Virus record (IMG/VR): IMGVR_UViG_3300028384_000991
Span: 1 to 64,000 of that record
From: a virus
Reading direction: 5' to 3' (one strand)
DNA: 64,000 bases
How positions within the stretch are numbered: the stretch's first letter is position 1; each line of letters begins with the position of its first letter. Below the pieces are notes generated by a model, which saw only the letters and a program-made list of their open reading frames with translations, ran no database searches and was not told where the DNA came from. Made by a program: the position numbers and the translations under genes. Shown here in pieces: positions 20,283 to 64,000 of this stretch.

Positions 20283-20289
20283 AAGCACA

Positions 20290-20295
20290 TAAATA
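20290..20295 (+). promoter_or_regulatory. Late promoter TAAATA, 5 nt before the gp25 ATG
   Basis: TAAATA ttgat ATG; no SD. Confidence 0.6.
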
Positions 20296-20300
20296 TTGAT

Positions 20301-46436: not shown

Positions 46437-46461
46437 TAATCTACATAGTAAATACTTTACT

Positions 46462-46803
46462 ATGGACGAGAAACTTCAAAAAGCCTTAGAGTTTGGCAAT
46501 TACAGCACGACTCTTGAAAATCAAAAGCGTATGTTACACGAAAAGTTTGTAACAGATACTATCTATTTTCATTCAGGTGGTCAATTTACAATTAACAAAG
46601 AACTAATAAACTTTGTTTTTATGTTACAACAAACAGGTCAAGACACATCTGTTATTGTTGATGATAACAATATTCCTATTGAAGTCGATGTAAATCAGTT
46701 TTTAGAAAATATATCAGATAAATTTTTCACAGCATCTAACGAATATCATACAGCATTTAAGAAGTTACAAACAAGTAGGTCGGTAGACGGTTTAACAGAA
46801 TGA
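46462..46803 (+). CDS. Hypothetical protein, possible fibre assembly chaperone
   Basis: 113 aa; TAAATA at 46449-46454; first gene of a translationally coupled run. Confidence 0.55.
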   Translation: MDEKLQKALEFGNYSTTLENQKRMLHEKFVTDTIYFHSGGQFTINKELINFVFMLQQTGQDTSVIVDDNNIPIEVDVNQFLENISDKFFTASNEYHTAFKKLQTSRSVDGLTE

Positions 46804-47621
46804 CATCTGGTGTATTATTATTTGCATATAACAACGAACAGATAGATTATGTTGCACAGGCTTGCTTTTTAGCAAAGCGTATCAAGCAATATATGAATCT
46901 ACCAACAACTCTTGTTACAGACGATAAAGAGCGTGTTCTAAAATTCTATAACGGTGCAGAAGTATTTGATCAAATTATTACATCCGACATTATTCGTAAA
47001 AATAAAAAAACATATCATGATGGAAGTTTATCAAAAAAGGTATTAGACTTTAAAAATTTCAATAGAAGTGATGCATATGATCTTACTCCGTATGACAAAA
47101 CACTAATTATGGATACGGATTATATTATTTCAAATAGTCTATTAGCAAATTGCTTTGATAGTGCAAATGATCTAATGATGTATTCGACTTGTATGGATAT
47201 ATCAGGTTGGAGAGATGAGGATGAATTTCATTATATTAGTGAAACAAGTATAAAATTTTATTGGGCAACTTGTGTTTACTTTACAAAAAATAAAAGAAAC
47301 AAAGCATTCTTTGATTTTGTAAAACACATCAAAGAAAACTATCAGCATTATAGAAACTTATACCAAATAACAAGCACAGTATTTAGAAACGATTATGCAT
47401 TTAGTATTGCGGCTCACGTATTAGGTCATGTAAAAGAACTTCCAGGTACTATGATCTATAGCACACACAAAGATATATTACAAAATATACACAATGACGA
47501 AATAAAGTTACTTGTAGAAAAGTATGATAGGGTTGGTGAGTATACATTATTAAAATCTACCGGCTTAAATGTACACGTTATGAATAAGTTTAGTTTGAAT
47601 AGGGAAATGATCAATGCCTAA
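46800..47621 (+). CDS. GT-A fold glycosyltransferase-like protein
   Basis: GVLLFAYN, AYDLTPYDKTLIMDTDY (DxD), FRND, HVMNK. Confidence 0.7.
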   Translation: MTSGVLLFAYNNEQIDYVAQACFLAKRIKQYMNLPTTLVTDDKERVLKFYNGAEVFDQIITSDIIRKNKKTYHDGSLSKKVLDFKNFNRSDAYDLTPYDKTLIMDTDYIISNSLLANCFDSANDLMMYSTCMDISGWRDEDEFHYISETSIKFYWATCVYFTKNKRNKAFFDFVKHIKENYQHYRNLYQITSTVFRNDYAFSIAAHVLGHVKELPGTMIYSTHKDILQNIHNDEIKLLVEKYDRVGEYTLLKSTGLNVHVMNKFSLNREMINA

Positions 47622-48447
47622 TTTTACATTTCTTGCACAAAACAATGACCAAGATAATTATATACGCCAAGCAGAATTGTTGGCAATGAGTATTCGCCAG
47701 TCAAATCCTGACAGTAAGATTTGTTTAATAACAAATGAAGATACCGAATGGATCAAAGAACATCTGTTTGATGACATTGTACCTATTCCGTGGGAAGATA
47801 AAGCAGACGAACACAAATGGAAGGTACAAAATAGATGGAAAATTTATCATGCTTGTCCGTACGATGAAACTTTTGTATTAGATACTGATATGTTAGTGTT
47901 ACATGATTTAACTAATTGGTGGAAACTAATGCAAAATTATGAAGTATTTTACACAACAAATGTTACAGATTATAAACAATGTAAACTAAACACAACATAT
48001 TATAGAAAAATGTTTATTCAAAATGATTTACCAGACATTTATGTAGCATTACACTATTTTAAAAAATCAGACTTTGCAAAAAAGTTCTATACTTGCTTAG
48101 AAGAAGTAATGAAGAACTGGGAATACTATTATGAAAAGTATGCTCCTAAAAAAATGCAAAAATTTTTAAGTGTTGATGTGTGTACAGCAATTACTATTAG
48201 GGTATTAGGGGTTGAAGATAAAGTAACTAACACTGTAACACCGTTTCCTACTTTTGTACACATGAAACCTTATGCACAACCTTGGAAAACACAAACTAAA
48301 AAATGGCAGGATAGAATTACTTGTTTTGTAAATGATGATAAACAAATGCGTGTTGGCGGACATTTACAAAATACTGTTTTTCATTATACTGAAAAAGACT
48401 TTACGGAGAAATTTTATGACAGATTCAATTATACAGTTTCCTGTTAA
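47614..48447 (+). CDS. GT-A fold glycosyltransferase-like protein (paralog of the previous gene)
   Basis: IYHACPYDETFVLDTDML (DxD), FVHMK, FHY. Confidence 0.7.
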   Translation: MPNFTFLAQNNDQDNYIRQAELLAMSIRQSNPDSKICLITNEDTEWIKEHLFDDIVPIPWEDKADEHKWKVQNRWKIYHACPYDETFVLDTDMLVLHDLTNWWKLMQNYEVFYTTNVTDYKQCKLNTTYYRKMFIQNDLPDIYVALHYFKKSDFAKKFYTCLEEVMKNWEYYYEKYAPKKMQKFLSVDVCTAITIRVLGVEDKVTNTVTPFPTFVHMKPYAQPWKTQTKKWQDRITCFVNDDKQMRVGGHLQNTVFHYTEKDFTEKFYDRFNYTVSC

Positions 48448-48979
48448 GGCTACAAAATTAAAAGAACATAGTTCAATCAAGCAAGAATTATTAAATGAAA
48501 TAAATTCAACTACACTTGTTGAAAATATCTTTGGACCTAATAATAATATTACGCGATGCGATTGGGGACCAGGAAGGTACAACCCAGATAGAGCATGGTT
48601 AAAATGTTTACAGTTTCCTTTGAATGAACACTTGAAACAATGGAGTAAAGGATTTAATTACGAAACATTTACAATTCATGAAATTTGGTTTCAGCAGTAT
48701 GCAAAAGAAGCAAAACATTCATGGCACGTGCATGGTTGTAACTTTACAAGTGTATATTACTTAGACTTACCCGAAGATACTCCTAAGACACAATGGTTAG
48801 ATCCTATAACTGGACAAGAATGTGACTTTGAGGTTAGCGAAGGCGATATTATTACTTTTCCGAGTTGGACAATTCATAGAGCGCCAGTAAATGAAACTGA
48901 CAAAATTAAAACAATTATATCATGGAATATGGATGTAGATATAAGTGATTACTTTAGGACAGAAAATGATCAAAGATAA
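48416..48979 (+). CDS. 2OG-Fe(II) oxygenase superfamily protein (HxH type)
   Basis: WFQQY..HSWHVH..SVYYL..GDIITFPSWTIH..IISWN; start moved to ATG 48416 (GGAG SD). Confidence 0.75.
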   Translation: MTDSIIQFPVKATKLKEHSSIKQELLNEINSTTLVENIFGPNNNITRCDWGPGRYNPDRAWLKCLQFPLNEHLKQWSKGFNYETFTIHEIWFQQYAKEAKHSWHVHGCNFTSVYYLDLPEDTPKTQWLDPITGQECDFEVSEGDIITFPSWTIHRAPVNETDKIKTIISWNMDVDISDYFRTENDQR

Positions 48980-49520
48980 CGTAGCAACATATGTAGAGTT
49001 TGATCCTAAGTCGGGAGATTTGCTTAGTATCACAAGTTATCCTAATACAGAAAATTATATTGAAGTAGAATGGGATAAGGTTGAAGGTCTTGCAAATGGC
49101 GGAGAAAAATTTAAACACTATAAAGTTGTTTTTAATACAACATCTTTGATGTATGAACTTGTTAACGTGTATGAGCAAACACATTTTGAATACAATGTTA
49201 ATAACAGTATGTATAAATTACATAAAAATACAAATGCAGACATAATTTTATGTAAAAATTACATAAAACAGCAATGGGAAATTAAGTTTGGTAAATTGTT
49301 TGAAAAAACATTAAAAGCCAACAACGTTACACTAAATTCTGTCAAAGATTTTAGTATTGTTAAGAAAAACGATCCGTTTGTTTTGTATAGAGCATTAAAA
49401 TTTAATATGAGTTCTGATAATTTAGTCTTGCAATTTAACGATAGTGATGCTATAATGGACTTTGATGTTTATACAAATAAAATGTTCAATAGTTATGGAG
49501 TAGAAGTTGTCAAAGATTAA
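48966..49520 (+). CDS. Hypothetical protein
   Basis: ORF coupled on both sides; ATG 48966 follows AGGA. Confidence 0.6.
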   Translation: MIKDNVATYVEFDPKSGDLLSITSYPNTENYIEVEWDKVEGLANGGEKFKHYKVVFNTTSLMYELVNVYEQTHFEYNVNNSMYKLHKNTNADIILCKNYIKQQWEIKFGKLFEKTLKANNVTLNSVKDFSIVKKNDPFVLYRALKFNMSSDNLVLQFNDSDAIMDFDVYTNKMFNSYGVEVVKD

Positions 49521-50394
49521 AATACAAGATGTTGATATTATTTTCTTAAGTTATGACGAACCTAATGCTGAAGAAAATTGGGCAGATCTACAACGTAAAA
49601 TTCCGTGGGCAAAGAGAGTACATGGTGTAGAAGGTTCAGACGCCGCACACAAAGCCTGTGCAGACTTGTCAGAAACAAAACACTTTGTTACAGTAGACGG
49701 TGATACTATTGTAGACCCTAAGTTTATGCAAGTAGAATTAGATTTAGACAAATTAAATGTTGATGACGATTATCAATTCAGTTGGTGCGGAAAAATTGAA
49801 GCAAACGGACTTATGTATGGCAACGGCAGTTTAAAAATGTGGACAAAAGATTTTGTCAAGAATATGAAAACACATGAAAACACTGACGGCACCGATGAAA
49901 CAAGTATTGAATTTTGTTACTTTGACAACTATTATCAATTAAATGAAAACTACAGTACAAGTATTATTACTTCAACACCACAACAAGCCTGGAGAGCAGG
50001 ATTCCGTGAAGGTGTTAAGATGTCATTGGATAGAGGAAAGCCTGTAGAAGATATTAATACACTATGGTGGCAGAATAAACATAGATTATATATTTGGCAA
50101 ATGGTAGGTTGTGATATTCCAAATGGTATTTGGGCAGTATATGGTGCTCGCCTTGGTACATATATGAATATGTGTACAGAATGGGATCATACACAAACAA
50201 GAGATTTTACATATCTAAACAATCTATGGAAAGAACACGAAAGCATAGATGTTGCAGAAGAATGTAAAGAGTTAGGAAAAAAATTAATTAACGAATTAGA
50301 TTTGCCTATTGCTGTAGTGCCATTTGATAAATTACAAAGTGAATTTTTTAAAACTGTTTATCTAAACAGTGATAGAGTGATTAGACGTAAATGA
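49507..50394 (+). CDS. Glycosyltransferase-like protein (GT-A, VDGD)
   Basis: DIIFLSYDEPNAEENW, AHKACA, FVTVDGD, YGNG, AWRAGFRE; paralog of 58434-59120. Confidence 0.6.
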   Translation: MSKIKIQDVDIIFLSYDEPNAEENWADLQRKIPWAKRVHGVEGSDAAHKACADLSETKHFVTVDGDTIVDPKFMQVELDLDKLNVDDDYQFSWCGKIEANGLMYGNGSLKMWTKDFVKNMKTHENTDGTDETSIEFCYFDNYYQLNENYSTSIITSTPQQAWRAGFREGVKMSLDRGKPVEDINTLWWQNKHRLYIWQMVGCDIPNGIWAVYGARLGTYMNMCTEWDHTQTRDFTYLNNLWKEHESIDVAEECKELGKKLINELDLPIAVVPFDKLQSEFFKTVYLNSDRVIRRK

Positions 50395-51770
50395 GCGAAG
50401 TAGATAGAATCAAGCAAATTATGCCTGAGATTGATAAAATCTCTCCTACGTTCTGCTTGGCTAAATGGCATCATGTTACTATCTATTTGCAAACAGGTGA
50501 AACACACAGTTGTTATCATCCAGCGCCTCATAAGATTCCGTTAGAAGGATTAATTGATAATCCAAGTCAGTTACATAACACTCCGCAAAAAAAGCAAGAA
50601 CGTAAACAAATGCTTGACGGAGAAAAACCAAGCGGTTGTCAATACTGTTGGAATATTGAATGTATGGGCAAAGACTATGTAAGCGACAGGCATATTAAAA
50701 CAGCAAGTATATATAGGCCAGATCGCATAGAAGAAATTACCAGTAACCCGTGGGATTATGATATCAACCCCGAGTATATTGAAGTAAACTTTAGTAACGA
50801 ATGTAATTTTAAGTGTGGTTACTGTCATCCTAAGTTTAGTACAAGTTACTTTAACGAAATTAAAAAGCACGGACCATATACTAAAAGCACAGCACATCGT
50901 AATGATATTGATTGGTTTGAATTGTATGAAGAAAGTGCAAACCCTTATGTAGACGCATGGTGGAAATGGTGGCCTGAAGTTTCCAAGACTCTTAATATTT
51001 TAAGAATTACAGGAGGTGAGCCTTTAATGCATAAGAGTACTTGGAGGCTTTTTGACGAACTTGAAAACAATCCTAAGCCTCATATCCAAATAGAACTTAA
51101 CAGTAATATGGGTGTAAAAGATAAACTTGTTAAAAAACTTGTCGAGCGTATTAAGTTACTAAAAGAAAAAAATTGTATTAGAAGTTTTAAATTGTATACA
51201 AGTATTGATACTTGGGGACCTCGTGCAAGTTATACACGTAGAGGACTTGACTTAGGATTATGGGAACGTAACCTTGATTATTATCTTAAAAATCTTGGTT
51301 ATCCTGTAACATTTATGATTACGTTTAATTTATTTGCAGTTACAAGTTTTGATAGGCTACTTAAAAAGATTTTAGAATGGCGCAGTAAGTATAACAAAAA
51401 TAATTTAACACAATGGCAAAATATTAGATTTGATACTCCGTATTTAAAAGAGCCAATCCAATTTGATATGAATATACTTCCTAAAGAAAAATTTATGCCT
51501 TATATGGAAAAGCATTTAAAATTTATTGCAGAAAATGTAGATGATGCAGATAAAACAAAATTTAGTCTGTTAGAGTATGAGCGTTTTCGTAGAGTAGTTG
51601 ATTATATGAGAACTACAGAATACAATGATGAAAAATTACTTGACGGCCATAAAAATTTTTATAATTGGTTTACAGAGTATGATAAACGTAGTAATACTAA
51701 CATAACTGAAATATTTCCTGAGTTAGAAGATTTTTATATTAGTTGTAAATCTAAAGTACTACCTGATTAG
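50391..51770 (+). CDS. Radical SAM protein with N-terminal Cys-rich (twitch/SPASM-like) domain
   Basis: CNFKCGYC, TGGEP; N-terminal FC..W..SCYH..CQYC. Confidence 0.85.
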   Translation: MSEVDRIKQIMPEIDKISPTFCLAKWHHVTIYLQTGETHSCYHPAPHKIPLEGLIDNPSQLHNTPQKKQERKQMLDGEKPSGCQYCWNIECMGKDYVSDRHIKTASIYRPDRIEEITSNPWDYDINPEYIEVNFSNECNFKCGYCHPKFSTSYFNEIKKHGPYTKSTAHRNDIDWFELYEESANPYVDAWWKWWPEVSKTLNILRITGGEPLMHKSTWRLFDELENNPKPHIQIELNSNMGVKDKLVKKLVERIKLLKEKNCIRSFKLYTSIDTWGPRASYTRRGLDLGLWERNLDYYLKNLGYPVTFMITFNLFAVTSFDRLLKKILEWRSKYNKNNLTQWQNIRFDTPYLKEPIQFDMNILPKEKFMPYMEKHLKFIAENVDDADKTKFSLLEYERFRRVVDYMRTTEYNDEKLLDGHKNFYNWFTEYDKRSNTNITEIFPELEDFYISCKSKVLPD

Positions 51771-52776
51771 TATAGATTTTATAAGCGAGTTTTTGATTGT
51801 GTTCTAATATTTCATTCATCTCTTCAAGCATTATTTTACAATCATCAATACTTAACATTTTAATACTGTCTAACAAATGGCGTATCTTATTCATACGCTT
51901 AGTATGATCTTCTTCAGTATCGTAACTTTCGTCCCATGTAAATGTTTTAAATCCTAACTTGCGTATATACTCTAATGTATAAGGTGGTGCAACACATATG
52001 AAAGGGCGTTTGTGTATCATTGCATTTACAGTTTTTTCGCTGAAGTTTCCTGTAGGTTGATAAAAACGTGTTTCGTTAGCAACTACACAAAAACTTTTTT
52101 CATAGTATGTAGACAAACTACCTGGACCATTATTTTCTCCTTCAGGCCATTTTTTATGTGCCGGATCTATACTTTTTAATTGTGTATCAATACTTAACGG
52201 TGGTTCGGCAAATGCCCAACTATAATAACCCGGAGTGTCTTGTAGGTGTTCTATAATTAACCGTCTATGCAAACTATATCGCCAATTGGGACATATAAAA
52301 TGTTTCTCAATATTATTTCGTACAGTAATACTTCCGCCATTAAATTGATTACGCAAAAATATATCAAAGCATTTAAGTGTAAACGGGTAATCTGTAATAT
52401 GTTTTTCTACATTATAATCACACGTATATACAGTTATATTTGCATTTAGTTTTTTTGAAAATTCTTCTATGCTATCTAATTCGTCAGCACGTAGTTTTTC
52501 TCCGCCTTTGAATTCTGAGAAAAATTGTCTATTGTGTGTGGTTCCTTCTTGGTATAAACTTAATGGCTCGTATAAAAATATATCTAAAGTTTTTAATTTA
52601 CTAATTAATTTTTTAGATAAAGGAATGCTACTAAAGTCTATCTTATTTGTTCCTGTAAAAATAATATAAGGTCTGTTAGGCTTCCAATGTCTAAACAATT
52701 CATGAAACATTTTTCCACGTTTATCACGAATTGCTTTGATTGGTAGATTACCCCAGAAGATATCTTGTTTGAACAT
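51751..52776 (-). CDS. Putative GT-B-like glycosyltransferase (E-K motif family)
   Basis: VVANET..FSEKT..PFI..LGFKTF..DESYD; paralog of 55518-56468. Confidence 0.5.
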   Translation of the reverse strand: MFKQDIFWGNLPIKAIRDKRGKMFHELFRHWKPNRPYIIFTGTNKIDFSSIPLSKKLISKLKTLDIFLYEPLSLYQEGTTHNRQFFSEFKGGEKLRADELDSIEEFSKKLNANITVYTCDYNVEKHITDYPFTLKCFDIFLRNQFNGGSITVRNNIEKHFICPNWRYSLHRRLIIEHLQDTPGYYSWAFAEPPLSIDTQLKSIDPAHKKWPEGENNGPGSLSTYYEKSFCVVANETRFYQPTGNFSEKTVNAMIHKRPFICVAPPYTLEYIRKLGFKTFTWDESYDTEEDHTKRMNKIRHLLDSIKMLSIDDCKIMLEEMNEILEHNQKLAYKIYTNQVVL

Positions 52777-53270
52777 TAGTAGTAGGTGCCTGTGATTTGT
52801 AGTGTGTATCTTGGTTCAACGCCAATGTTACTTGCGGCGTGTGGAGCATCCGGTGTCCATAAAACATATTCGCCTGCTTTGTAATTTACAACACCGTTAC
52901 CTTCAACTTCGAAATAGTGTCCCGGCTTCCATTCTTCTAAGAATACAATAGCACGTCTTACTTCTTTTCTATCTTTGTTAAACACTTTGCAATATGTGTT
53001 AAAATGATCAGTATGCACAGGCATAATATCTAATGTGTCCATTCTGTAAAAAACAAATCCAGGATTACGTAAATTCAATAAAGAAGCAACTTTATCTACC
53101 CATTCCGGCATTGGATTTCTACTATCATACATTTTACCTGTAGTAGTATCATGTGTATAACCTTGTTTACGCCAAGTTTCTGCTTCTTCACCTGTAATAG
53201 GTTGTCTTACGTAATCAAAATTTTTGTATTCTTCGTCCCATAAAATAGGAAGGAAACCTCTATAAAACAT
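52776..53270 (-). CDS. 2OG-Fe(II) oxygenase/cupin
   Basis: MPVHTD...PHAASNIG..PRYTLQITG; start ATG 53270 (alternatively TTG 53279). Confidence 0.75.
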   Translation of the reverse strand: MFYRGFLPILWDEEYKNFDYVRQPITGEEAETWRKQGYTHDTTTGKMYDSRNPMPEWVDKVASLLNLRNPGFVFYRMDTLDIMPVHTDHFNTYCKVFNKDRKEVRRAIVFLEEWKPGHYFEVEGNGVVNYKAGEYVLWTPDAPHAASNIGVEPRYTLQITGTYY

Positions 53271-54228
53271 CTCTTTCAATATCCAATGTTACGCAGTGAA
53301 ATCCACCGCCTAAAGTTCTTTGATGCCTCATTGGCAACATAGCACACTCAATGCCTTGTGCTTCGAGTGCTTTACGTAGTGGCTCTTGATGTTTTTCAAG
53401 TGCAACTAACTTAGTATTTACACTAAACAAGTTCATGTTAATCCATGTACTTGCATTGCACCAACCCGGATAGTGTCCTATATCAACTGGTTCTGGACAC
53501 CATAGTATATCCCAACTTCTAAACGGTTCTGGTAAATCGTCCTTGCTTTTTATTCTACTTGGATTAGCAAGTAGTAATCCTTCACGTAAAAATGCAACAG
53601 TGCTATCAATATGCATATAACTATAAACATCTTTTAGTAGATGAACTTTTGCTCTATCACCTAATGCATTTTGTAATAATGTTGCACCTAATTCATTACC
53701 ACTATTGCTTACAAGATATAAAACGTGTTCATTGGCACGGATAATATTAGCGGCGTCAAACGCAGGTTCAAAGTCTGTTAGTGCAAGAATGTCTTTGTTA
53801 CCGATACAATCTGTATTGTATAACTTACTTTCATAGTAGCATCTTACATTTCGAGGATCGTTTAAATGTTTCTCAAATGCTCGCCACTCGCCCTTTCTTG
53901 CTCTAATTGGCATAGGGGTTGCAAGTGTTAATTTATCGTGTACAAATACTGAGTCTCGAGGACAATAATTATAATAGTTACAATCAGTAGTATCAGGACG
54001 TACAACTTCAACTGATTCTCCTTTTAAAAAATCTACAAAGGTTTCTAAATCTTCGTTTGCTTCATCTATTACTTGTTGTGGGTAAGGTCCTTTTTGAATT
54101 TCGCTTTCGTCTGTTTTGTCTGCAAAATTTACACAGCGTAAACTTATATCTATGTCTGTAGGAATTTTTGCATTATCTGCAATACCAACAATTACTTTTT
54201 TAAGTTTACCCCATTCATTTTTAGACAT
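53260..54228 (-). CDS. Amidinotransferase (AGAT/StrB1 family)
   Basis: NEWGKLKKVIVG, YCPRD, FDAAN, HIDST, LGGGFHCVTLD (Asp-His-Cys triad). Confidence 0.9.
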   Translation of the reverse strand: MSKNEWGKLKKVIVGIADNAKIPTDIDISLRCVNFADKTDESEIQKGPYPQQVIDEANEDLETFVDFLKGESVEVVRPDTTDCNYYNYCPRDSVFVHDKLTLATPMPIRARKGEWRAFEKHLNDPRNVRCYYESKLYNTDCIGNKDILALTDFEPAFDAANIIRANEHVLYLVSNSGNELGATLLQNALGDRAKVHLLKDVYSYMHIDSTVAFLREGLLLANPSRIKSKDDLPEPFRSWDILWCPEPVDIGHYPGWCNASTWINMNLFSVNTKLVALEKHQEPLRKALEAQGIECAMLPMRHQRTLGGGFHCVTLDIERDVL

Positions 54229-55482: not shown

Positions 55483-55487
55483 AAACA

Positions 55488-55512
55488 TATTTATATGCGT
55501 ACTTAATAAGTA
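55488..55512. promoter_or_regulatory. Back-to-back late promoters TATAAATA (-, 55495-55488) and TAAGTA (+, 55507-55512), with ATTAAGTACGCA (-) between them
   Basis: Each hexamer lies 5 nt before a start codon (ATG 55482, GTG 55518). Confidence 0.6.
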
Positions 55513-55517
55513 TATGT

Positions 55518-56468: not shown

Positions 56469-57652
56469 GTACAATTGGTTTTATTGGCGTAGGTAAGTTA
56501 GGCGAGCCTTGTGCAGAAGAAATAGTTAAGAAGGGACATATAGTAAAAGGTTATGATATTTCTTCTTTTAGCAGTCAACATATTCAAACAACAGAGTCTA
56601 TTAAAGAATGTGTAGAAGATACAGATATTGTATTTGTTGCAGTGCCAACACCACATCATCCAGACTATGACGGTAAACGTCCGACCAGCCATTTAGAACC
56701 CAAAGACTTTGATTACAGTATTGTTATAGATGTTTTGAAAGAAGCAAACAAACATATGAACAAAGATCAACTTTTGGTGTTAATCTCAACAGTCTTACCA
56801 GGAACAACACGTAGAGAATTTGTTCCGCTTGTAACTAACACACGTTTTGTTTATAATCCTTATCTAATTGCAATGGGAACTGTAGGCTGGGACATGGTAA
56901 ATCCTGAAATGGTAATGATCGGAACCGACGATGGCAGTGAAACAGGTGATGCAAAACAGTTACGTGAATTTTATGATAGTGTAATGGAAAATAATCCTCG
57001 TTATGTAATTGGCACATATGATGAGTGTGAATGTATTAAGGTATTTTATAATACATTTATTAGTACAAAACTAAGTCTTGTAAACATGATGCAAGACGTT
57101 GCACAGCGTCAAGGTAATATCAATGTTGATGTTGTAACAAAAGCATTAGCAGAAAGCACACAACGTATTATGAGTCCTGCTTATATGACAGCAGGTATGG
57201 GCGATGGCGGCAGTTGTCACCCAAGAGATAATATTGCACTACGTTACATGGCAAAAGAACTAAATCTTGAATATGATATTTTTGATAGCATTATGACGGC
57301 CAGAGAAATACAAGCAAAAAATCTTGCAAAATTTGTTGTTGATACAAAAAACAAATATGGTGGTAGTATTTTCTTAAACGGTATTACATATAAACCTGGT
57401 GTAGAATATGTAGACGGGAGTTATGCGTTACTTGTAGATCATTACATAAAAGAACTTGGTGAAAAATGTATATACATTGATCCACTTGCTTGTGAAATGC
57501 CAAGCAGTGAAACAAGTCTTGGAGGCATTGTTTTACTTGCACATCCAACGCCTTATTTAAATTACTCAACAGATACAGTTTTTATTGATCCGTGGAGAAG
57601 TATGAAGCCTGATCCTAAATATTTAATTTTATCATACGGAAACACACGATGA
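56465..57652 (+). CDS. UDP-glucose/GDP-mannose dehydrogenase family protein
   Basis: IGFIGVGKLG, FVAVPTP, STVLPGT, KVFYNTF, GGSCHPRD catalytic Cys. Confidence 0.9.
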   Translation: MSTIGFIGVGKLGEPCAEEIVKKGHIVKGYDISSFSSQHIQTTESIKECVEDTDIVFVAVPTPHHPDYDGKRPTSHLEPKDFDYSIVIDVLKEANKHMNKDQLLVLISTVLPGTTRREFVPLVTNTRFVYNPYLIAMGTVGWDMVNPEMVMIGTDDGSETGDAKQLREFYDSVMENNPRYVIGTYDECECIKVFYNTFISTKLSLVNMMQDVAQRQGNINVDVVTKALAESTQRIMSPAYMTAGMGDGGSCHPRDNIALRYMAKELNLEYDIFDSIMTAREIQAKNLAKFVVDTKNKYGGSIFLNGITYKPGVEYVDGSYALLVDHYIKELGEKCIYIDPLACEMPSSETSLGGIVLLAHPTPYLNYSTDTVFIDPWRSMKPDPKYLILSYGNTR

Positions 57653-58446
57653 GATATACTAAGTCAGAACCGTTGCTATACTTTCCTGGCAAAGCAGGAA
57701 AAACTCTACAGTGGTATAACGGTGACGATTTAGAAAACTATAATGCAAGTAATAAACCAGATTGGAATTATTTTGGTAGTAAAGATAAACTGTTTTATGA
57801 ATTTAACAGTTTAGGATATAGAACAAGAGAATTAGATACACTTGATGATTACATTCTTGTGTTTGGGTGTAGTTATACAGAAGGCACAGGATTGTTTGAA
57901 AACGAAATATGGTGTAATGTATTAGGCAACGAATTAGGAATAGATATTTTAAATTTAGCAAAAGCAGGAACAGGTCCTGACGTTGTAAATCTTAACACCC
58001 AATTATTTGTAAAAAATAAATTTGTAAAACCTCGTGCAGTTATTAATCAATGGCCGCAATCTACAAGAAAAAGTTTTGCTTATATAGAACGTGAAGGATT
58101 ATTTAAAAAACAATTAAGATTAGAAGATCGTAATGTTAATAACTGGGTAGCAGGAGAAAATGCTGACAGTGATTGGTATTTTAATAGATGGTTAATGGAA
58201 GATGGACAATTAGAATATGAAAACAGTTTGCATATTAACAGTGTAACAAACCTTTGGAATGCTTTAGGAGTTCCTGTTTTCAATTGGACCTTTGGCGGCG
58301 ACTTTATGACAAAGTATAATAAAGAAATGGTATCTGTTCTAAAACTTGAAAATACAGATAGAGCAAGAGACAATGCACATGATGGTCCGTTGATACACAA
58401 AGAAGTAGTAGAAAAAATTAGAGATAAAGTTGAATGTATGATATAG
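57649..58446 (+). CDS. SGNH-like protein (GCS variant)
   Basis: FNSLGYR, VFGCSYTEG, NLAKAGTG, RDNAHDG. Confidence 0.55.
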   Translation: MRYTKSEPLLYFPGKAGKTLQWYNGDDLENYNASNKPDWNYFGSKDKLFYEFNSLGYRTRELDTLDDYILVFGCSYTEGTGLFENEIWCNVLGNELGIDILNLAKAGTGPDVVNLNTQLFVKNKFVKPRAVINQWPQSTRKSFAYIEREGLFKKQLRLEDRNVNNWVAGENADSDWYFNRWLMEDGQLEYENSLHINSVTNLWNALGVPVFNWTFGGDFMTKYNKEMVSVLKLENTDRARDNAHDGPLIHKEVVEKIRDKVECMI

Positions 58447-59120
58447 TGTTTATAAGTTACGGTGAACCTAACGCTGATAATAATTGGGAAAGACTAAAGA
58501 GTCAATTTCCAATGGCTAAGCGTGTGAAAGATGTAGAAGGAATACATCAAGCACATATCACCGCGGCAAAAAAATGCTTTACAAAAATGTTTTGGGTAGT
58601 TGACGGAGATGCTGAACTACTTGATTTCAACTTTGACTATGAGGTTTCCGAGTGGGATTTAGAAACAGTTCATGTATGGAGAAGTATAAATCCTGTCAAT
58701 AACTTGGAATATGGATACGGTGGTGTTAAACTTCTCCCTCGCACACTCACGTTAAACATGGACACCACCGTACCCGACATGACTACAAGTATCAGTGATA
58801 AATTTAAGGCAGTAGATCAAATAAGCAATCTAACAGTTTTTAATACAGATCCTTGGAATGCATGGAAGAGTGGATTTAGAGAATGTTGTAAACTTGCAAG
58901 TAAAACAATTAAAGGACAAGTTGACGAAGAAACTGAAAAGCGTTTAGATATTTGGTGTACTGTAGGTGAAGATGCCGAGTTTGGCAAATATGCTATTCAT
59001 GGTGCACAAGTAGGTAGACACTTTGGCGAAGCACACAAAGACGATAAAGATATGCTTTACAAAATAAATGATTTTAAATGGTTGAAGGAGCAGTTTGATG
59101 ACTACGAAGATTCCATTTAA
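58434..59120 (+). CDS. Glycosyltransferase-like protein (GT-A, VDGD)
   Basis: YDIVFISYGEPNA, AHITAA, WVVDGD, YGYGGVKL, AWKSGFRE. Confidence 0.6.
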   Translation: MYDIVFISYGEPNADNNWERLKSQFPMAKRVKDVEGIHQAHITAAKKCFTKMFWVVDGDAELLDFNFDYEVSEWDLETVHVWRSINPVNNLEYGYGGVKLLPRTLTLNMDTTVPDMTTSISDKFKAVDQISNLTVFNTDPWNAWKSGFRECCKLASKTIKGQVDEETEKRLDIWCTVGEDAEFGKYAIHGAQVGRHFGEAHKDDKDMLYKINDFKWLKEQFDDYEDSI

Positions 59121-60057
59121 TAATATTGTAAAGTTAGGTCAAAAGACAATGCTGGACAATAATTTGTTTTCAGTTAGTTGGATTATTGGGCGTTTTTGTA
59201 ATTACAAGTGTTCGTACTGTTGGCCATATGCTAACACAGATAAACCTGATTACTATGATTTACAAACATATAAAAATACTGTTGATGAAATAAAACGCCA
59301 AGCAATAGCCAATGGATTTGATAAATTTCATTTTAGTTTTAGTGGCGGAGAACCTACAGCCTATAAAGATTTATTAAAATTAATAGAACACTACGAAGAT
59401 TACAAGAGTGAATATCTAAGTATACACATGACAAGTAATTGTAGTCCGTCAAAGTCTTGGTGGAAGCGTTGGTTAGATATTACTCATGTAATGGATAGAA
59501 GAAGTATTACTGCAAGTTTTCATGCAGAGTTTGCCAATGAAAAAGCGTTTGGCGACAAATTATTATATTTACAGGACAACGATGTTTTCATTACTATTAA
59601 TCAAGTAATGGTTCCAAGTCTATGGGAGGAGTATTATGAAAGAAGTCAAAGATTCATTAAAAGAGGTTTGCACGTTACTCTTAAGCCGCAATCAGATCCT
59701 ACTGCGTCATTTGTGGTCGATGGTTACACGGAAGAACAAAAACAAATCTTGCAAAATGACAGCGAACAAGAATACAAACAAGTTCGCCTCCAAGATGATA
59801 AAGGAATAGAATACGAAATAGATCAAGCAGAAAGATTAAATGCGTATGGATTTAATAAGTTTAAAGGTTGGCAATGTAACAGTGGATATCAAAGTTGCAT
59901 TATTAGAGGCAATGAAGTAAAACGTAGTTACAGTTGTCATGACGAACCATTAGGAACACTTACTGATGGTTTTCAACTTTTTGATAAACCGATGCCTTGT
60001 ATCACACCAAGTTGTGTAAGCAGTGCAGATAGCAAAATACCGAAAGAAAAAATATGA
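59095..60057 (+). CDS. Radical SAM protein with C-terminal Cys cluster
   Basis: CNYKCSYC, SGGEP; C-terminal C..G..C..SC..C...C. Confidence 0.85.
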   Translation: MMTTKIPFNNIVKLGQKTMLDNNLFSVSWIIGRFCNYKCSYCWPYANTDKPDYYDLQTYKNTVDEIKRQAIANGFDKFHFSFSGGEPTAYKDLLKLIEHYEDYKSEYLSIHMTSNCSPSKSWWKRWLDITHVMDRRSITASFHAEFANEKAFGDKLLYLQDNDVFITINQVMVPSLWEEYYERSQRFIKRGLHVTLKPQSDPTASFVVDGYTEEQKQILQNDSEQEYKQVRLQDDKGIEYEIDQAERLNAYGFNKFKGWQCNSGYQSCIIRGNEVKRSYSCHDEPLGTLTDGFQLFDKPMPCITPSCVSSADSKIPKEKI

Positions 60058-60653
60058 AAATAGAATTAGAAGATATTATGTTTTGGATGGACGCTATTCG
60101 TAACAGCGAGGATCGGGATCGTACACTTGAAAGTTTTTGGAAAGGTCAATTACGTAGTAAAGAAGCCTTGGTAAGAATGTTAGAATTCAAGTGTGATTAT
60201 AGAAAACAATATTCAATAACAATACACGGAGGTTGGAATGGAGTACTTGCCAGTTTACTTTTTAATAGTCGCATTGATATACGCAATATCAGATCAGTAG
60301 ACATAGATCCTGACTGCGAAGAAACAGCAAAGACTATGAATAAAAACCAAGAGATGGAAGGCAGATTTACTGCACACACAGGCGATATGTGTACAGATAA
60401 GTACAATGCAGACATTGTAATTAATACAAGTTGCGAACACGTAGATAAAGTCAAATTGCAACAATGGTTTGATAACATACCTCAAGGTACTATGTATGTT
60501 ATGCAAAGCAATAATTATTCGGAACTTGAAGAACATATTAACTGTGTTAACAGTGCAGGCGAACTGGCCGAGTCTGTTGGTGCTAAAGACTATGATGTAG
60601 AGGAAATCGTATTACCTAAGTATACAAGGTATATGATTAGTGGAATAAAATGA
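60054..60653 (+). CDS. Class I SAM-dependent methyltransferase-like protein
   Basis: IHGGWNGVLA, SVDID, GDM, VINTSCEH. Confidence 0.7.
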   Translation: MKIELEDIMFWMDAIRNSEDRDRTLESFWKGQLRSKEALVRMLEFKCDYRKQYSITIHGGWNGVLASLLFNSRIDIRNIRSVDIDPDCEETAKTMNKNQEMEGRFTAHTGDMCTDKYNADIVINTSCEHVDKVKLQQWFDNIPQGTMYVMQSNNYSELEEHINCVNSAGELAESVGAKDYDVEEIVLPKYTRYMISGIK

Positions 60654-61270
60654 ATTACGAAACACTTACACAATACGGAAGTTTTATAGAATTAGATGTA
60701 GTTACTGATGCAGAGCAATTAGTTGCTTGGGCAAATGATTTCGAATGGGTCAAATACAATCCACGTAAAGATGTAAACAGATGGGGACTTAGTATTACAA
60801 GTCTTGACGGAGGCTTGTCAGGTGTTCCTGACTTAGATAGTTTGTACGAATACAACAAAGAAAATAACACAAATTACAAAGAAGAAGATTTTAAAGTTCC
60901 AACTCCTGTACTAAACAAACAAATACATGATATACTTAAACCTTGGAATGGATATTATTATAGAACACACTTTTTAAAATTTGGTCCAGGCGGATTTTTC
61001 CCTCCGCATAGAGATTGGAATTACATGACTGGTGTTCCTAAAGACTTTAGATTAATTATGCCATTGCGTAATGTTAATCCTCCATCATTTAATTTTGTCT
61101 ATGAAGATAAAACACTGCATTGGGAAACAGGAAGAATGTATTTCTTAGATACTCAGCGTATGCATTATTTGTTTAACAGTAGTTTCACAGATAGTTATTG
61201 GATGGTAGTTAATGTAGCACTAAACACAGAAACTATTATGCGAACATTAGAAAGGTTAAATCAGAAGTAA
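60650..61270 (+). CDS. 2OG-Fe(II) oxygenase (Asp/Asn beta-hydroxylase-like)
   Basis: PGGFFPPHRD, GRMYFLDTQRMHYLFN. Confidence 0.7.
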   Translation: MNYETLTQYGSFIELDVVTDAEQLVAWANDFEWVKYNPRKDVNRWGLSITSLDGGLSGVPDLDSLYEYNKENNTNYKEEDFKVPTPVLNKQIHDILKPWNGYYYRTHFLKFGPGGFFPPHRDWNYMTGVPKDFRLIMPLRNVNPPSFNFVYEDKTLHWETGRMYFLDTQRMHYLFNSSFTDSYWMVVNVALNTETIMRTLERLNQK

Positions 61271-62268
61271 TGTATAACTATGAAGATATTACCTCAATAC
61301 ATTTAGAAGTTACATCTAAATGCCAAGCACGTTGTCCCATGTGTCCGAGACGAATTCATGGCGGACCGTTATTAGACAGTATTGATTTAGAAGAAATTGA
61401 TTTAGGAACTTTTGTAAATTGGTTTCCAAGAGACTTTGTTCGTCAATTACATTTTCTTAATATGTGCGGAAACTTAGGTGATCCTATTGTAGCAAAAGAT
61501 ACACTTGAAATTTTCAAATACTTGCGTGAAACAAATCAAGGTATGACTTTACAAATGCATACTAACGGAAGTGGAAGATCAAAAGAGTGGTGGCAAGAAC
61601 TTGCTCAGCAAAATGTAAAAGTTGTATTCGGTATTGACGGATTAAAAGATACCCATGCATTGTACAGAGTAAACACTGACTGGGATAAAATTATAAACAA
61701 TGCTACACATTTTATTCATGCCGGCGGAGATGCACGTTGGGATATGTTAGTGTTCGAACACAATGAAGATCAAGTAGAAACTTGCGAACAAATGAGTAAA
61801 GAGTTAGGTTTCAAAGGCTTTAGTATCAAACATACAACAAGATTCAAAGATGGTAGATTTGATGTGTTAGATGATGATTATAATATTACACATACATTGT
61901 TTCCTTCTAAGAAAAGTCGCGATATGATTAAGCCAGCCAAAGAAGCACAAAAAGAAAAAATGCCAACAATTAGTTGTAAGGCAAAAAATGATAATCAAAT
62001 GTATATTAGTGCAAACGGCAACGTAAGTCCTTGCTGTTGGTTAGACTTAGAATGGTTACCACAGCACAGTTACAGTAGATTAGATTACATGGTTAAAATT
62101 AAAAAATATCCTAATTTGCATAAGAATACTATGCAAGAAATATTTGATTCAAACTTTTTCCGTGACATTGAAAAGACATGGACTACTTGTGGTATGCTTG
62201 AATGTTCTAAGCAATGCGGAAGTTTTGACAAACTAAACAAACAGTTTGAAAGGATAGAGCATGAGTAA
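61270..62268 (+). CDS. Radical SAM protein with C-terminal twitch/SPASM-like domain
   Basis: CQARCPMC, GNLGDP, TNG, GIDG; C..YISANGNVSPCC..CSKQC. Confidence 0.85.
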   Translation: MYNYEDITSIHLEVTSKCQARCPMCPRRIHGGPLLDSIDLEEIDLGTFVNWFPRDFVRQLHFLNMCGNLGDPIVAKDTLEIFKYLRETNQGMTLQMHTNGSGRSKEWWQELAQQNVKVVFGIDGLKDTHALYRVNTDWDKIINNATHFIHAGGDARWDMLVFEHNEDQVETCEQMSKELGFKGFSIKHTTRFKDGRFDVLDDDYNITHTLFPSKKSRDMIKPAKEAQKEKMPTISCKAKNDNQMYISANGNVSPCCWLDLEWLPQHSYSRLDYMVKIKKYPNLHKNTMQEIFDSNFFRDIEKTWTTCGMLECSKQCGSFDKLNKQFERIEHE

Positions 62269-63562
62269 AACGTTTTGTCCTTTGCCTTGGATACACTTAG
62301 CAACCAGACCAAACGGTGACGTTCGTGTTTGCTGTACAGCAAATGCTTCTGGTGCAGGCAAAGAAGATGACAAAACAGCAGGACTTGTAAAGCAAGATGG
62401 TGTTGCTATGAACTTGCGTGATCATACTATTGAACAAGTATGGAACAGTGAACATATGCGTAGAACAAGACTACAAATGCTTAATGATGAAATACCAGAA
62501 AGTTGTCGTAAATGTTTTTACGAAGAATCAAAAGGTATTGTTAGTAAGCGTCAATGGGAAACAGAAGTATGGAAACAAAGATTAGACATTGACAGCATTG
62601 TAGCAAAAACCGATGAGCAAGGAAACTTGCCTGTTGATATTCCATACTTTGATTTACGTTTAGGCAATATGTGTAATCTAAAATGTACAATGTGTTCGCC
62701 GCATGATAGTTCAAGTTGGATTAAAGAATGGAAGTTACTGTATCCTAAATATACAAATGAAGATCTAAAACGTGATCAAAGTTGGGACGAAAACTTTGAT
62801 TATACTTGGTATAAAAAAGGAACGTTCTTAGACAGTATGAAAGATCAAGCAAAGTATATTAAAGAATTGTATTTTGCAGGCGGCGAACCTTTGATGATTC
62901 CTGAACACTATAACATTTTACAGTTTATGGTTGATGAAGGTTATGCAAAAGATTGCTGTATAAGATACAACTCAAATGGAACTGTGTTAGAAGATAAACT
63001 GTTTGTACTATGGTCGCATTTTAAAGAAGTCACTTTTAATTTTAGCATTGATGCATATGGTGACAAGAATGATTATATCCGTTATCCAAGTCAATGGAAA
63101 GAAATAGAAAATAATTTAAGAATATTAGACGATAGTGGTACTAACACAAGAATTAATATTGCCTCAGCAGTACAATTATTAAATGCACCGTACCTTGGAG
63201 AATTAGCCGAATGGAAAGCAAGTCAGAAATTTCACAAAGTAAACAATATGCCTTTTGGTGGCGGACTTATTAGTACACATCTTGTTTATTTTCCAAGTTA
63301 TCTAAATGTAAGAGTATTGCCAAAAGAATTAAAAGAATTTACAAAATCACAAATAGAAATGTTTGTTGAAAGACAAAAGTTTAATACTGATTGGAATAGA
63401 AGTCCAATGGGTAAAACAAGATGGTTAGGATTAATTGATTACATGATGGCAGAAGATTGGACAAACAAACTACCACAACTAAAAGACTATTTAGAAACGC
63501 TTGACAAATCAAGAGGTACAGACTTTAGAAAAACTTTTCCTGAGTTAGGAGAATATATCTAA
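62261..63562 (+). CDS. Radical SAM protein with N-terminal twitch/SPASM-like domain
   Basis: FCPLPW..GDVRVCC..CRKC; CNLKCTMC; AGGEP; FSID. Confidence 0.88.
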   Translation: MSKTFCPLPWIHLATRPNGDVRVCCTANASGAGKEDDKTAGLVKQDGVAMNLRDHTIEQVWNSEHMRRTRLQMLNDEIPESCRKCFYEESKGIVSKRQWETEVWKQRLDIDSIVAKTDEQGNLPVDIPYFDLRLGNMCNLKCTMCSPHDSSSWIKEWKLLYPKYTNEDLKRDQSWDENFDYTWYKKGTFLDSMKDQAKYIKELYFAGGEPLMIPEHYNILQFMVDEGYAKDCCIRYNSNGTVLEDKLFVLWSHFKEVTFNFSIDAYGDKNDYIRYPSQWKEIENNLRILDDSGTNTRINIASAVQLLNAPYLGELAEWKASQKFHKVNNMPFGGGLISTHLVYFPSYLNVRVLPKELKEFTKSQIEMFVERQKFNTDWNRSPMGKTRWLGLIDYMMAEDWTNKLPQLKDYLETLDKSRGTDFRKTFPELGEYI

Positions 63563-64000
63563 TGTACAAAGGTTTAATATTAGGCAGACAACAAGACGTT
63601 AATGTTGATACTGAACATTGGAAATTTGGTATCGTTAGGAACAATAAAAAGATTGTTGATACGATGTTACATTATACAGCATTTCCGTTAGCATATAATG
63701 ATCACGGTATTATAGATGCTGTATGTGAAAATCTCAAAAAGTATAAACCAGAAACAGGTGATAATGCATTTAAAGCATTTGAACCAACACTTAATAGTCC
63801 GCATATAGAACTATCAAATAAACTTTATGAAATGAGTAACGGTTATAGATCTGTATATACATTATCGGGTAGTGATGGTATTGAAGTTGCTATAAAACTT
63901 GCGTTTGCTTATCATGAAAAAAAGCAAAACAATAAAAAGAAAATTGTAAGTTTTACAGATGCATATCATGGTGCAACACTATTATCTCTTTCTTGTGGAG
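63562..64000 (+). CDS. Class-III PLP aminotransferase (partial; runs off the window end)
   Basis: ATG overlaps the previous stop (TAATG). Translates ..LSGSDGIEVAIKLAFAY..KIVSFTDAYHGATL.., the class-III SGS..E.A.K and YHG.T motifs. Not in the ORF track. Confidence 0.8.
   Translation, partial: MYKGLILGRQQDVNVDTEHWKFGIVRNNKKIVDTMLHYTAFPLAYNDHGIIDAVCENLKKYKPETGDNAFKAFEPTLNSPHIELSNKLYEMSNGYRSVYTLSGSDGIEVAIKLAFAYHEKKQNNKKKIVSFTDAYHGATLLSLSCG

Follow-up and report, generated by a model that had tools for sequence, protein, structure and literature searches.

Predicted glycan-building and glycan-tailoring island between the tail-fibre genes of a marine jumbo phage, and its possible acceptor

What does a phage make with about 29 kb of enzyme genes set between its tail-fibre genes, and onto what is the product placed? 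The locus that raises this question lies in IMG/VR virus record IMGVR_UViG_3300028384_000991, a contig of 156,563 bp whose first 64 kb form the stretch analysed here (the window). A first-pass annotation of the window had described an island rich in glycosyltransferases (GTs), radical S-adenosylmethionine (SAM) enzymes and oxygenases, and had proposed that it builds a glycan late in infection, on virion proteins or the host surface, rather than hypermodified bases. Our analysis gives good support to the prediction of an island that makes and modifies a glycan. The leading interpretation, to which we give a probability of roughly 0.4, places this glycan on fibre proteins of the phage itself. 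The glycan enzyme set, the position in the fibre module and the late-type promoter-like boxes of the earlier proposal stood, and what we infer is the chemistry of the sugars, when the genes are expressed and, most of all, the acceptor.

The tight packing of the block described from 46449 onward holds. Open reading frames (ORFs) run end to end from 46462, mostly with overlapping stop and start codons, and the only gaps longer than 20 nucleotides (nt) are 46437-46461 and the divergent start region 55483-55529. Its size had been put at no less than 17.5 kb and about 20 genes; the block is larger, continuing past the window edge to ~75583 of the contig (~29 kb, ~37 ORFs, 8 radical SAM genes). It does follow directly on the tail fibres and is in fact flanked by fibre genes on both sides. 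To the left lie three paralogous fibre-like genes, namely 39796-41877 (Collar and Gp10_C domains), 41877 and 44013 (PHROG virion and tail-fibre matches, the tail-fibre match on 44013), and then 45504-46436. The right border is a convergent fibre gene at 75580-76884 with a Major-tropism-determinant N-terminal (Mtd_N) domain. Genes are labelled by their start coordinates, several of which were refined (for example 55518 to 55530 and 59095 to 59098). When gene content was checked ORF by ORF, every enzyme class that had been named was present, the two SGNH-like and the methyltransferase calls at motif level only, the remaining classes backed by profiles or models. Pfam, PHROG and NCBIfam left 12 window ORFs unnamed, and family alignments from related loci, with profiles made from them, were therefore needed. 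Two AF2 structure predictions (58434 and 51751) were also made and compared by Foldseek and VIA. A megablast search of the island against cultured phages gave no match.

The six GT-like proteins were said to form three paralog pairs, and blastp pairing together with profiles and models bears this out (46800/47614, 49507/58434 and 51751/55530). The joint profile of the first pair (A2) matched glycogenin-1 and glycogenin-2 (E=1.2e-5, profile positions 12-124), and a D105xD107 motif, invariant in 24 sequences, aligns with the glycogenin DAD motif; the single sequences of 46800 and 47614 had no match in Pfam. By catalytic-domain similarity and DxD, both are GT8-like proteins with a predicted transferase activity. 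The model of 58434 (pLDDT 89.8) had 31 PDB matches in Foldseek at E<=1e-3, those listed being all of the NDP-sugar (nucleoside diphosphate sugar) transferase fold and mostly GT-A glycosyltransferases, among them RmlT, ppGalNAc-transferases, WrtF, PBCV-1 A64R and SunS (E ~1e-4, probability 1.0). In VIA it reached Z=11.3 to B4GALNT1 over 132 amino acids (aa), with a root-mean-square deviation (rmsd) of 2.8. Nucleotidyltransferases that share this fold, IspD and MobA, tie with the GT-A matches in VIA (Z ~10), which counts against the assignment. A transferase is nevertheless favoured over a nucleotidyltransferase, since D57xD59 is invariant and the GxGxR motif absent in the 58434/49507 alignment (A1), and fused relatives of 58434 carry the GT2 Pfam marks PF00535 or PF13641. 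For the third pair, the model of 51751 (pLDDT 74.9) gave top Foldseek matches that were almost all GT-B (best GtfC, E=1.3e-3, probability 0.97). VIA gave Z=10.1 to FUT9 (223 aa, rmsd 4.2), and Z=9-10 over 220-259 aa to FUT9, exostosin, T4 beta-glucosyltransferase and TarM. A two-Rossmann GT-B fold for 51751 and 55530 has moderate support from this model. Where the first-pass annotation had allowed that structure searches might show the GT-like ORFs not to be transferases, the searched models match GT-A (58434) and GT-B (51751) folds. Profile searches against PDB with alignments A1, A3, A6 (60054), A7 and A11 gave no match.

Longer relatives point to how these proteins work together. A search for such relatives found 2287 proteins of 400-1948 aa carrying a 58434-like domain, and fusion forms were read from a sample of them compared with the island proteins. 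In one form, 49507-like and 58434-like domains share a chain of 528-542 aa; in another, a 60054-like domain is added (886 aa, P0206, with PF00535 on record); further chains hold up to six tandem GT-A domains. As the fusions join both GT-A genes and the methyltransferase-like gene, 49507, 58434 and 60054 probably act in one process, and tandem transferase domains are consistent with the stepwise assembly of an oligosaccharide. Marine metagenomes hold thousands of 400-1948 aa proteins with up to six tandem 58434-type GT-A domains (P0124-P0243), mostly without a Pfam mark, and these look like a large unannotated family of multi-domain viral glycosyltransferases.

The modifying enzymes suggest that the sugars are unusual. 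The amidinotransferase call at 53260 was confirmed by full-length homology to StrB1. Profile A4 aligned residues 3-319 with residues 7-339 of PDB 1bwd (E=1e-72), including the catalytic Cys motif LGGGFHC, and also matched AGAT (1e-43), HsvA and SxtG. Pfam likewise confirmed the NDP-sugar dehydrogenase at 56465-57652. Of the two pyridoxal phosphate (PLP) aminotransferases that had been claimed, the class-III enzyme at 63562 stands, and the DegT-like 54898 is present but spans only 194 aa. This short length is kept in relatives and in ORF305 of the cultured Synechococcus phage S-SCSM2R (55% identity). We rejected the idea of one DegT gene split into 54898 and 54221: many relatives, and also S-SCSM2R, keep the short form where 54221 is missing, and 54221 itself belongs by alignment to the SGNH-like family. 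The profile of that family reached only E>1 against PDB (AlgX). All three 2-oxoglutarate (2OG)-Fe(II) oxygenases were recovered: 48416 and the AspH-like 60650 by Pfam, and 52776 by an invariant HxD...H...R and a weak match to AtsK (E=0.03), its homolog S-SCSM2R ORF308 being annotated as a 2OG-Fe(II) oxygenase. Beyond the window follow two more AspH-like genes, a TauD-type oxygenase, a weak QueC-like protein, a weak APH-like kinase match (68983-69444, E=1.5e-3) and a 491-aa protein, 72209. The family of 72209 is virus-dominated (its Atlas clusters are virus-only and unnamed), and some clusters are fused to an AspH domain. An AspH-like gene and 72209 (contig 71506-73684) also adjoin in distant phage contigs, and single-protein AspH-72209 fusions occur in some viruses and in Bdellovibrionota (660 aa in L155). 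Pairing in distant phages and fusion in some make it probable that the two form one unit.

Radical SAM enzymes are the most numerous tailoring class. The four in the window (50391, 59098, 61270 and 62261) were confirmed by Pfam, and four more lie beyond it (65881, 67348, 69431 and 70464). Four of the eight belong to NF033640 (N_Twi_rSAM), an NCBIfam family of radical SAM proteins that have a twitch domain and carry their auxiliary-cluster domain N-terminally; 50391, 62261, 67348 and 69431 score 313, 421, 214 and 229 bits against a curated cut-off of 170. The alignment of this N-twitch family keeps the three CxxxCxxC cysteines (C138, C142, C145) throughout, together with three at the N-terminus (C6, C82, C85); C25 is almost invariant. 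A literature search for NF033640 members with a studied function found none. Relatives are abundant: more than 200 in IMG/VR for 50391 and more than 5800 in a large protein collection, some on 330-350 kb contigs, and 51 IMG/VR loci for 62261. SPASM and twitch domains are both present among the island enzymes.

Synteny and variability, which the first-pass annotation had named as a check, were examined by mapping the island proteins onto the 51 IMG/VR loci that carry a 62261 relative, the upstream genes being scored on the 46 loci with enough flank. A core and an accessory layer were found. The genes 44013, 45504, 46462, 46800, 47614 and 49507 occur in 46/46 loci, and each of these loci has a 45504 homolog (one to three copies) immediately ahead of 46462. 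Downstream, 58434 is kept in 50/51, 59098 in 45/51 and 61270 in 41/51 loci. Counting 50391 and 58434, a core of seven genes (45504, 46462, 46800, 47614, 49507, 50391 and 58434) recurs in 46/46 related loci and in RsoM2USA. The accessory layer includes the amidinotransferase cassette (~22/51), the dehydrogenase (33/51) and the 48416 oxygenase (7/46), and in some relatives a short island runs straight into homologs of 76954-77883. A fully hypervariable island is ruled out for the core by its conservation in all 46 loci. The 113-aa core protein 46462 had no match in Pfam, NCBIfam, PHROG or PDB.

The core order is also kept, at 31-48% identity, in a cultured Ralstonia jumbo phage, RsoM2USA. Its ORF355-347 run as 45504-like, 46462, two GT8-like, GT-A, N-twitch radical SAM, GT-A and methyltransferase-like genes, with RsoM2USA_348 48% identical to 58434 and RsoM2USA_349 36% identical to 50391. 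This cassette sits just behind the baseplate, sheath and virion-confirmed structural genes (ORF361 and ORF356); the 45504 homolog before it is partial. Members of the 45504 family are found in Pseudomonas jumbo phages of the PA5oct type as well, and the PA5oct homolog, EST35_0123, follows a gp10-like gene and is flagged as detected in virions by electrospray tandem mass spectrometry (ESI-MS/MS). Outside phages, Bdellovibrionota chromosomes carry a module of 60054, 58434, 62261, 61270 and 59098 homologs at 40-51% identity (L143-L219; for example L149:7881-14982, L155:8021-21325 and L164:8009-18815), in which 59098 homologs reach 45-52% and 62261 homologs 42-48% identity and the methyltransferase-like gene is a fusion form. 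Its neighbours are tandem arrays of up to 7 N-twitch paralogs, AspH-72209 fusions, a SIS-domain protein, TSP_3 repeat proteins and a fatty-acid desaturase.

We propose that these genes encode a cytoplasmic glycosylation and tailoring system that would be read with the tail-fibre genes late in infection. The NDP-sugar 6-dehydrogenase, the two aminotransferases, SGNH-type acyl handlers and the methyltransferase-like protein would make activated unusual sugars, and the arginine-dependent amidinotransferase would turn an amine into a guanidine. The 2OG and AspH-type hydroxylases and the eight radical SAM enzymes may complete the tailoring set. The six glycosyltransferases (the GT8-like pair, the GT-B-like pair and the pair that forms a new GT-A family) would then assemble an oligosaccharide, most likely on a fibre-module virion protein. 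Foremost among the candidate acceptors is the 45504 family, whose gene is always directly 5' of the cassette.

Three points fit a cytoplasmic acceptor such as a virion protein. First, no credible membrane segment was found in the 37 island proteins (of three hydrophobic stretches flagged, two lie within over-extended N-termini and one is barely at threshold), and their Pfam matches include no transporter, exporter, flippase, polymerase or initiating transferase. The island therefore does not look like an O-antigen or capsule cluster, which is recognised by a membrane initiating transferase, a flippase or ABC transporter and a polymerase. Second, the core strictly adjoins a virion gene in two distant lineages, and the island lies between fibre genes. 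Third, tail-collar proteins have been predicted as substrates of AspH-type hydroxylases (PMC2938197).

The timing of expression was examined by motif. The canonical T4 late box, TATAAATA, occurs three times in the 156-kb contig: before the baseplate-hub-like gene 5655, before the wedge-fibre connector-like gene 131090-132965 and upstream of the inverted island cassette, 5 nt from its ATG at 55482. More broadly, 10 called gene starts have [A/G]TAAATA 4 or 5 nt upstream, and 55482 became the eleventh after start refinement; from the 112 TAAATA sites in the contig, ~0.12 such placements would be expected by chance. Genes behind these boxes encode a baseplate wedge subunit, a wedge-fibre connector-like and a short-fibre-like protein, and they include the island starts 55482 (-) and 71506 (+). 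The sites of the form [A/G]TAAATA-N5-ATG, at 20286-20303 and 55480-55495 of the window and at 71490-71508 and 105742-150471 of the contig, precede mostly structural genes. With T4-like start-site spacing, late mRNAs from such boxes would be leaderless or nearly so. The box at 46449 is a weaker case, its spacer being 7 nt where the genome-wide pattern is TAAATA-N5-ATG, and the plus-strand operon starting at 55530 has no [A/G]TAAATA box.

The only promoter-like motifs had been reported to be late-type. Late-type boxes do stand at two island operon starts, but the island also holds a perfect sigma-70 consensus. A scan found no enrichment of sigma-70-like sites (83 vs 92.7 +/- 10.1 expected); perfect TTGACA-17-TATAAT occurs twice in the window (0.17 expected), at 14969-14997 (-), intergenic and before the gene ending at 14944, and at 56314-56342 (+). 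The latter, inside the GT-B-like gene 55530 and 122 nt before the dehydrogenase gene 56465, argues against exclusively late expression. Since the closest relatives have TTGATA at this place and the others lack the site, we treat it as a caveat and not as a conserved promoter. On these motifs the island may be expressed late.

Several further points weigh against placing the glycan on fibres. Its presence on virions is a prediction from genes, and PA5oct keeps the 45504 homolog without any cassette behind it. No phage-fibre homolog was found near the Bdellovibrionota module, which argues that the chemistry does not need a phage fibre. A non-structural region, with GT genes as neighbours, holds the amidinotransferase sub-cassette of S-SCSM2R. 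An insertion hot spot where the fibre operon ends could account for the island's position, and soluble GTs could act on host lipid-linked acceptors. Comparable islands have been read in print as modifying the host O-chain (PMC7029224, PMC7824862).

This last idea is the alternative that survives best, and we regard it as unlikely but serious. The enzymes would build or alter the O-antigen, capsule or another envelope glycan of the host by way of host lipid carriers and export, and so block superinfection or the re-adsorption of progeny to debris. The pelagimyophage host recognition clusters, with their fibres, GT8 enzymes, LPS-type (lipopolysaccharide) genes and radical SAM cassettes, were interpreted by their authors as modifying the host O-chain and avoiding co-infection, and GT8 includes LPS core transferases (PMC7029224); LPS and capsule clusters of jumbo cyanophages have been read likewise (PMC7824862). 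The S-SCSM2R cassette outside the structural module, and the chromosomal module of Bdellovibrionota beside a SIS-domain gene, would fit as well. The island, however, has no initiating phosphoglycosyltransferase, flippase, polymerase, ligase, transporter or membrane protein. Its promoter-like boxes match those of structural genes, while exclusion functions are expected early, and its core is tied to a virion-protein gene in both phage lineages.

A free secondary metabolite seems improbable. Such a product would be a soluble guanidino or amino sugar-derived compound, aminoglycoside- or nucleoside-like, acting on the host or on competitors, and it would account for the StrB1-like amidinotransferase, the aminotransferases, the dehydrogenase, the weak APH-like kinase and the many tailoring oxygenases and radical SAM enzymes. 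The homologs in S-SCSM2R were named 'antibiotic synthesis genes' by its authors (PMC12801897), and metabolites derived from sugars or amino acids were proposed for cyanophage clusters by Iyer et al. (PMC7824862). When the island was compared with a streptidine-type pathway, the amidinotransferase was present, but the aminotransferase was only the short DegT-like protein, the kinase only the weak APH-like match, and no inositol enzyme was detected among the island genes. Inositol-phosphate synthase, an exporter and a self-resistance gene are all absent from the island. Six GTs and multi-GT fusions of up to six tandem domains point to an oligosaccharide and not to a pseudo-disaccharide, late expression would leave a diffusible product little time, and the adjacency to the fibre gene is strict.

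Direct editing of protein side chains has, in our view, a rather small chance of being the main function. Here the right half of the island, with its N-twitch and SPASM radical SAM enzymes, AspH-like proteins, 72209 family and TauD, would hydroxylate or cross-link fibre residues in the manner of ribosomally synthesised and post-translationally modified peptides (RiPPs), and glycosylation might or might not follow. Among the SPASM enzymes that have been characterised, most have peptide substrates, and the sub-threshold NCBIfam matches nearest to the island radical SAM enzymes are peptide or cofactor maturases. Against this, twitch enzymes such as BtrN act on sugars, and 59098, 61270 and 62261 travel with GT-A and methyltransferase-like genes in bacteria. 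In favour, AspH-family enzymes hydroxylate proteins, AspH-72209 fusions occur in some viruses and Bdellovibrionota, and a Collar domain of the kind predicted as an AspH-type substrate (PMC2938197) is present in 39796-41877. The island, however, holds no precursor-peptide ORF and has no room for one (no intergenic space exceeds 47 nt and there is no small conserved ORF), Pfam detected no RRE domain, and no collagen-like repeats that might serve as hydroxylase substrates were found in the contig.

Hypermodification of DNA, in which the transferases would glycosylate modified bases of the phage genome, is very improbable: phage GTs can place diverse glycans on DNA (Pyle et al. 2024, as cited in PMC12619734) and T4 alpha- and beta-glucosyltransferase are among the tied GT-B matches of 51751, but nothing in the island resembles a base-modification pathway, the island lies in a structural module behind late-type boxes, amidinotransferase, AspH and SGNH chemistry has no DNA precedent, and the contig has no thymidylate-synthase-like hydroxymethylase (PF00303), the last being weak evidence because the contig covers only ~44% of the genome.

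Fibre glycosylation remains the preferred reading. In its fullest form, a widespread marine jumbo phage lineage and RsoM2USA would carry their own tail-fibre glycosylation machine, making a glycan with guanidino, uronic and methylated sugars edited by N-twitch NF033640 radical SAM enzymes, by a chemistry common to predatory Bdellovibrionota; this we put forward tentatively, at clearly less than even odds. The coordinates of the window features are collected in Table 1.

Table 1. Genes and promoter-like motifs of the island within the window
Feature	Position	Strand	Basis
Fibre-module virion protein, 310 aa, candidate glycan acceptor	45504..46436	+	PA5oct homolog EST35_0123 detected in virions; directly 5' of cassette in 46/46 loci
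TAAATA box, late-type motif, off-register by 2 nt	46449..46454	+	7 nt before ATG of 46462
Core gene, no family match, 113 aa	46462..46803	+	46/46 loci; RsoM2USA homolog 32% identity
GT8-like (GT-A) glycosyltransferase, core	46800..47621	+	Profile A2, glycogenin E=1.2e-5; 46/46 loci
GT8-like paralog of 46800, core	47614..48447	+	blastp E=2e-6; profile A2; 46/46 loci
2OG-Fe(II) oxygenase, accessory	48416..48979	+	PF13759 E=7.6e-8; phrog_81 E=7e-31; 7/46 loci; start refined
Beta-rich protein, near-core	48966..49520	+	40/46 loci; Atlas clusters virus-only, unnamed; no PDB match
GT-A glycosyltransferase-like, core, paralog of 58434	49507..50394	+	blastp E=7e-28; invariant DxD in alignment A1
Radical SAM, N-terminal twitch (NF033640), core	50391..51770	+	313 bits vs cut-off 170
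GT-B-like glycosyltransferase	51751..52776	-	AF2 model pLDDT 74.9; Foldseek/VIA GT-B matches
Small 2OG-Fe(II) oxygenase-like	52776..53270	-	Invariant H89xD91...H147...R157; AtsK E=0.03
L-arginine-dependent amidinotransferase (StrB1/AGAT family)	53260..54228	-	Profile A4 vs 1bwd E=1e-72
SGNH-like, motif level	54221..54901	-	Aligns with 57649 family; GCS...G...H invariant
Short DegT/AHBA-synthase-like PLP protein, 194 aa	54898..55482	-	PF01041 E=5e-17, profile positions 23-92 only
TATAAATA box, late-type	55488..55495	-	5 nt before ATG at 55482
GT-B-like paralog of 51751	55530..56468	+	blastp E=2e-5; alignment A3, invariant E235/E247/K248
Perfect sigma-70 consensus TTGACA-17-TATAAT, within coding region	56314..56342	+	Sequence scan
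UDP-glucose/GDP-mannose dehydrogenase family	56465..57652	+	PF00984 E=6e-18; PF03721 E=4e-16
SGNH-like, motif level	57649..58446	+	Alignment A5; weak DUF6473 match
GT-A glycosyltransferase-like, core	58434..59120	+	AF2 pLDDT 89.8; D57xD59 invariant; 50/51 loci
Radical SAM, short type	59098..60057	+	PF04055 E=1.4e-12; 45/51 loci
Class-I methyltransferase-like, motif level	60054..60653	+	Alignment A6, GG.NG and D.DP motifs
Asp/Asn beta-hydroxylase-like (AspH-like) 2OG oxygenase	60650..61270	+	PF05118 E=2.4e-5, above its cut-off
Radical SAM, C-terminal SPASM domain	61270..62268	+	PF04055 and PF13186; 41/51 loci
Radical SAM, N-terminal twitch (NF033640)	62261..63562	+	421 bits vs cut-off 170
Class-III aminotransferase	63562..64000, continuing to 64674 of contig	+	PF00202 E=1e-41, full gene

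The carrier of the island, an uncultured phage, is best placed among jumbo myoviruses. Its baseplate wedge protein is nearest to those of Atu_ph07, Phosso and GAP32-type jumbo myoviruses (~35% identity). A T4-like cyanophage or pelagiphage identity was ruled out by this Atu_ph07/GAP32-type wedge, by a CheckV completeness of 44% for the contig and by relatives on 330-380 kb contigs. Between the wedge gene and the fibre genes lies a single ORF of 4960 aa at 24274-39156 (+), which may be a counterpart of the VrlC-type giant baseplate protein of pelagimyophages or of RsoM2USA ORF361.

A glycan on the fibres would change the view of host range, adsorption and resistance to host defences or grazers in abundant ocean phages. 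Virus-encoded virion glycosylation would then reach beyond giant viruses and mycobacteriophages into jumbo phages whose hosts are Gram-negative. Among phages of Gram-negative bacteria it would be the first autonomous system of this kind, and it would supply NF033640 with a first substrate context. Independently of the target, an uncharacterised radical SAM family that abounds in marine metagenomes gains a genetic context from the island, in the form of GT-A, methyltransferase-like and sugar enzymes. RsoM2USA offers a cultured model for the question of the glycan target, and S-SCSM2R (PQ898602) a possible second laboratory model for the guanidino-forming sub-pathway.

Among published systems, pelagimyophages and cyanomyophages have the one closest in kind, their 'host recognition cluster' (Zaragoza-Solas et al. 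2020, PMC7029224). It too is a large island in the structural module, with fibres, many GTs (GT8 being the commonest), UDP-glucose dehydrogenase, AspH-type hydroxylases and radical SAM cassettes, and it grows by the addition of cassettes. Its carriers, however, are T4-like phages of ~150 kb, whereas the present phage is a Rak2/GAP32-like jumbo; the present island has a seven-gene core that is invariant and not hypervariable, and neither an amidinotransferase nor an N-twitch radical SAM core is described in the cluster. Cyanophage clusters more generally were taken by Iyer et al. for host-surface modification or secondary-metabolite systems (PMC7824862).

Virion glycosylation encoded by the virus itself is established in giant viruses, on Mimivirus fibrils and the chlorovirus capsid (PMC10117803, PMC8456856, PMC9614988), and virion glycans of mycobacteriophages are reported by Freeman et al. 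2023, as cited in PMC12619734. These viruses likewise encode sugar-nucleotide enzymes (aminotransferases and dehydrogenases) and several GTs in clade-specific clusters, and PBCV-1 A64R and the Che8 GTs are fold-level matches of 58434. Their glycans, on surface fibrils or the capsid, are chemically proven, whereas the present system is known from genes alone; they have no radical SAM arrays or amidinotransferases, and their hosts are eukaryotes or actinobacteria.

Closer relatives share parts of the gene set. RsoM2USA ORF355-347 (MG752970; PMC8504454) has the gene order of the island core but only its 8 genes, all annotated as hypothetical, with no accessory tailoring genes. S-SCSM2R ORF301-310 (PQ898602; PMC12801897) shares the short DegT/AHBA-synthase-like protein (55% identity), the small 2OG oxygenase (28%) and the amidinotransferase (65%). 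There the trio sits among five GT genes and one radical SAM gene (229-236 kb), in a region of small non-structural genes and without the 45504-to-50391 core. The inosamine-phosphate amidinotransferase StrB1 (PDB 1bwd) is alike in its full-length alignment and catalytic Cys motif, but the present context has no inositol pathway. The NF033640 modules of Bdellovibrionota have their gene set in common with the island, in bacterial loci without phage-fibre genes. The present island is set apart from the host recognition clusters and the known virion glycosylation systems by its jumbo myovirus lineage, an invariant core tied to one virion gene, a StrB1-like amidinotransferase and eight radical SAM enzymes.

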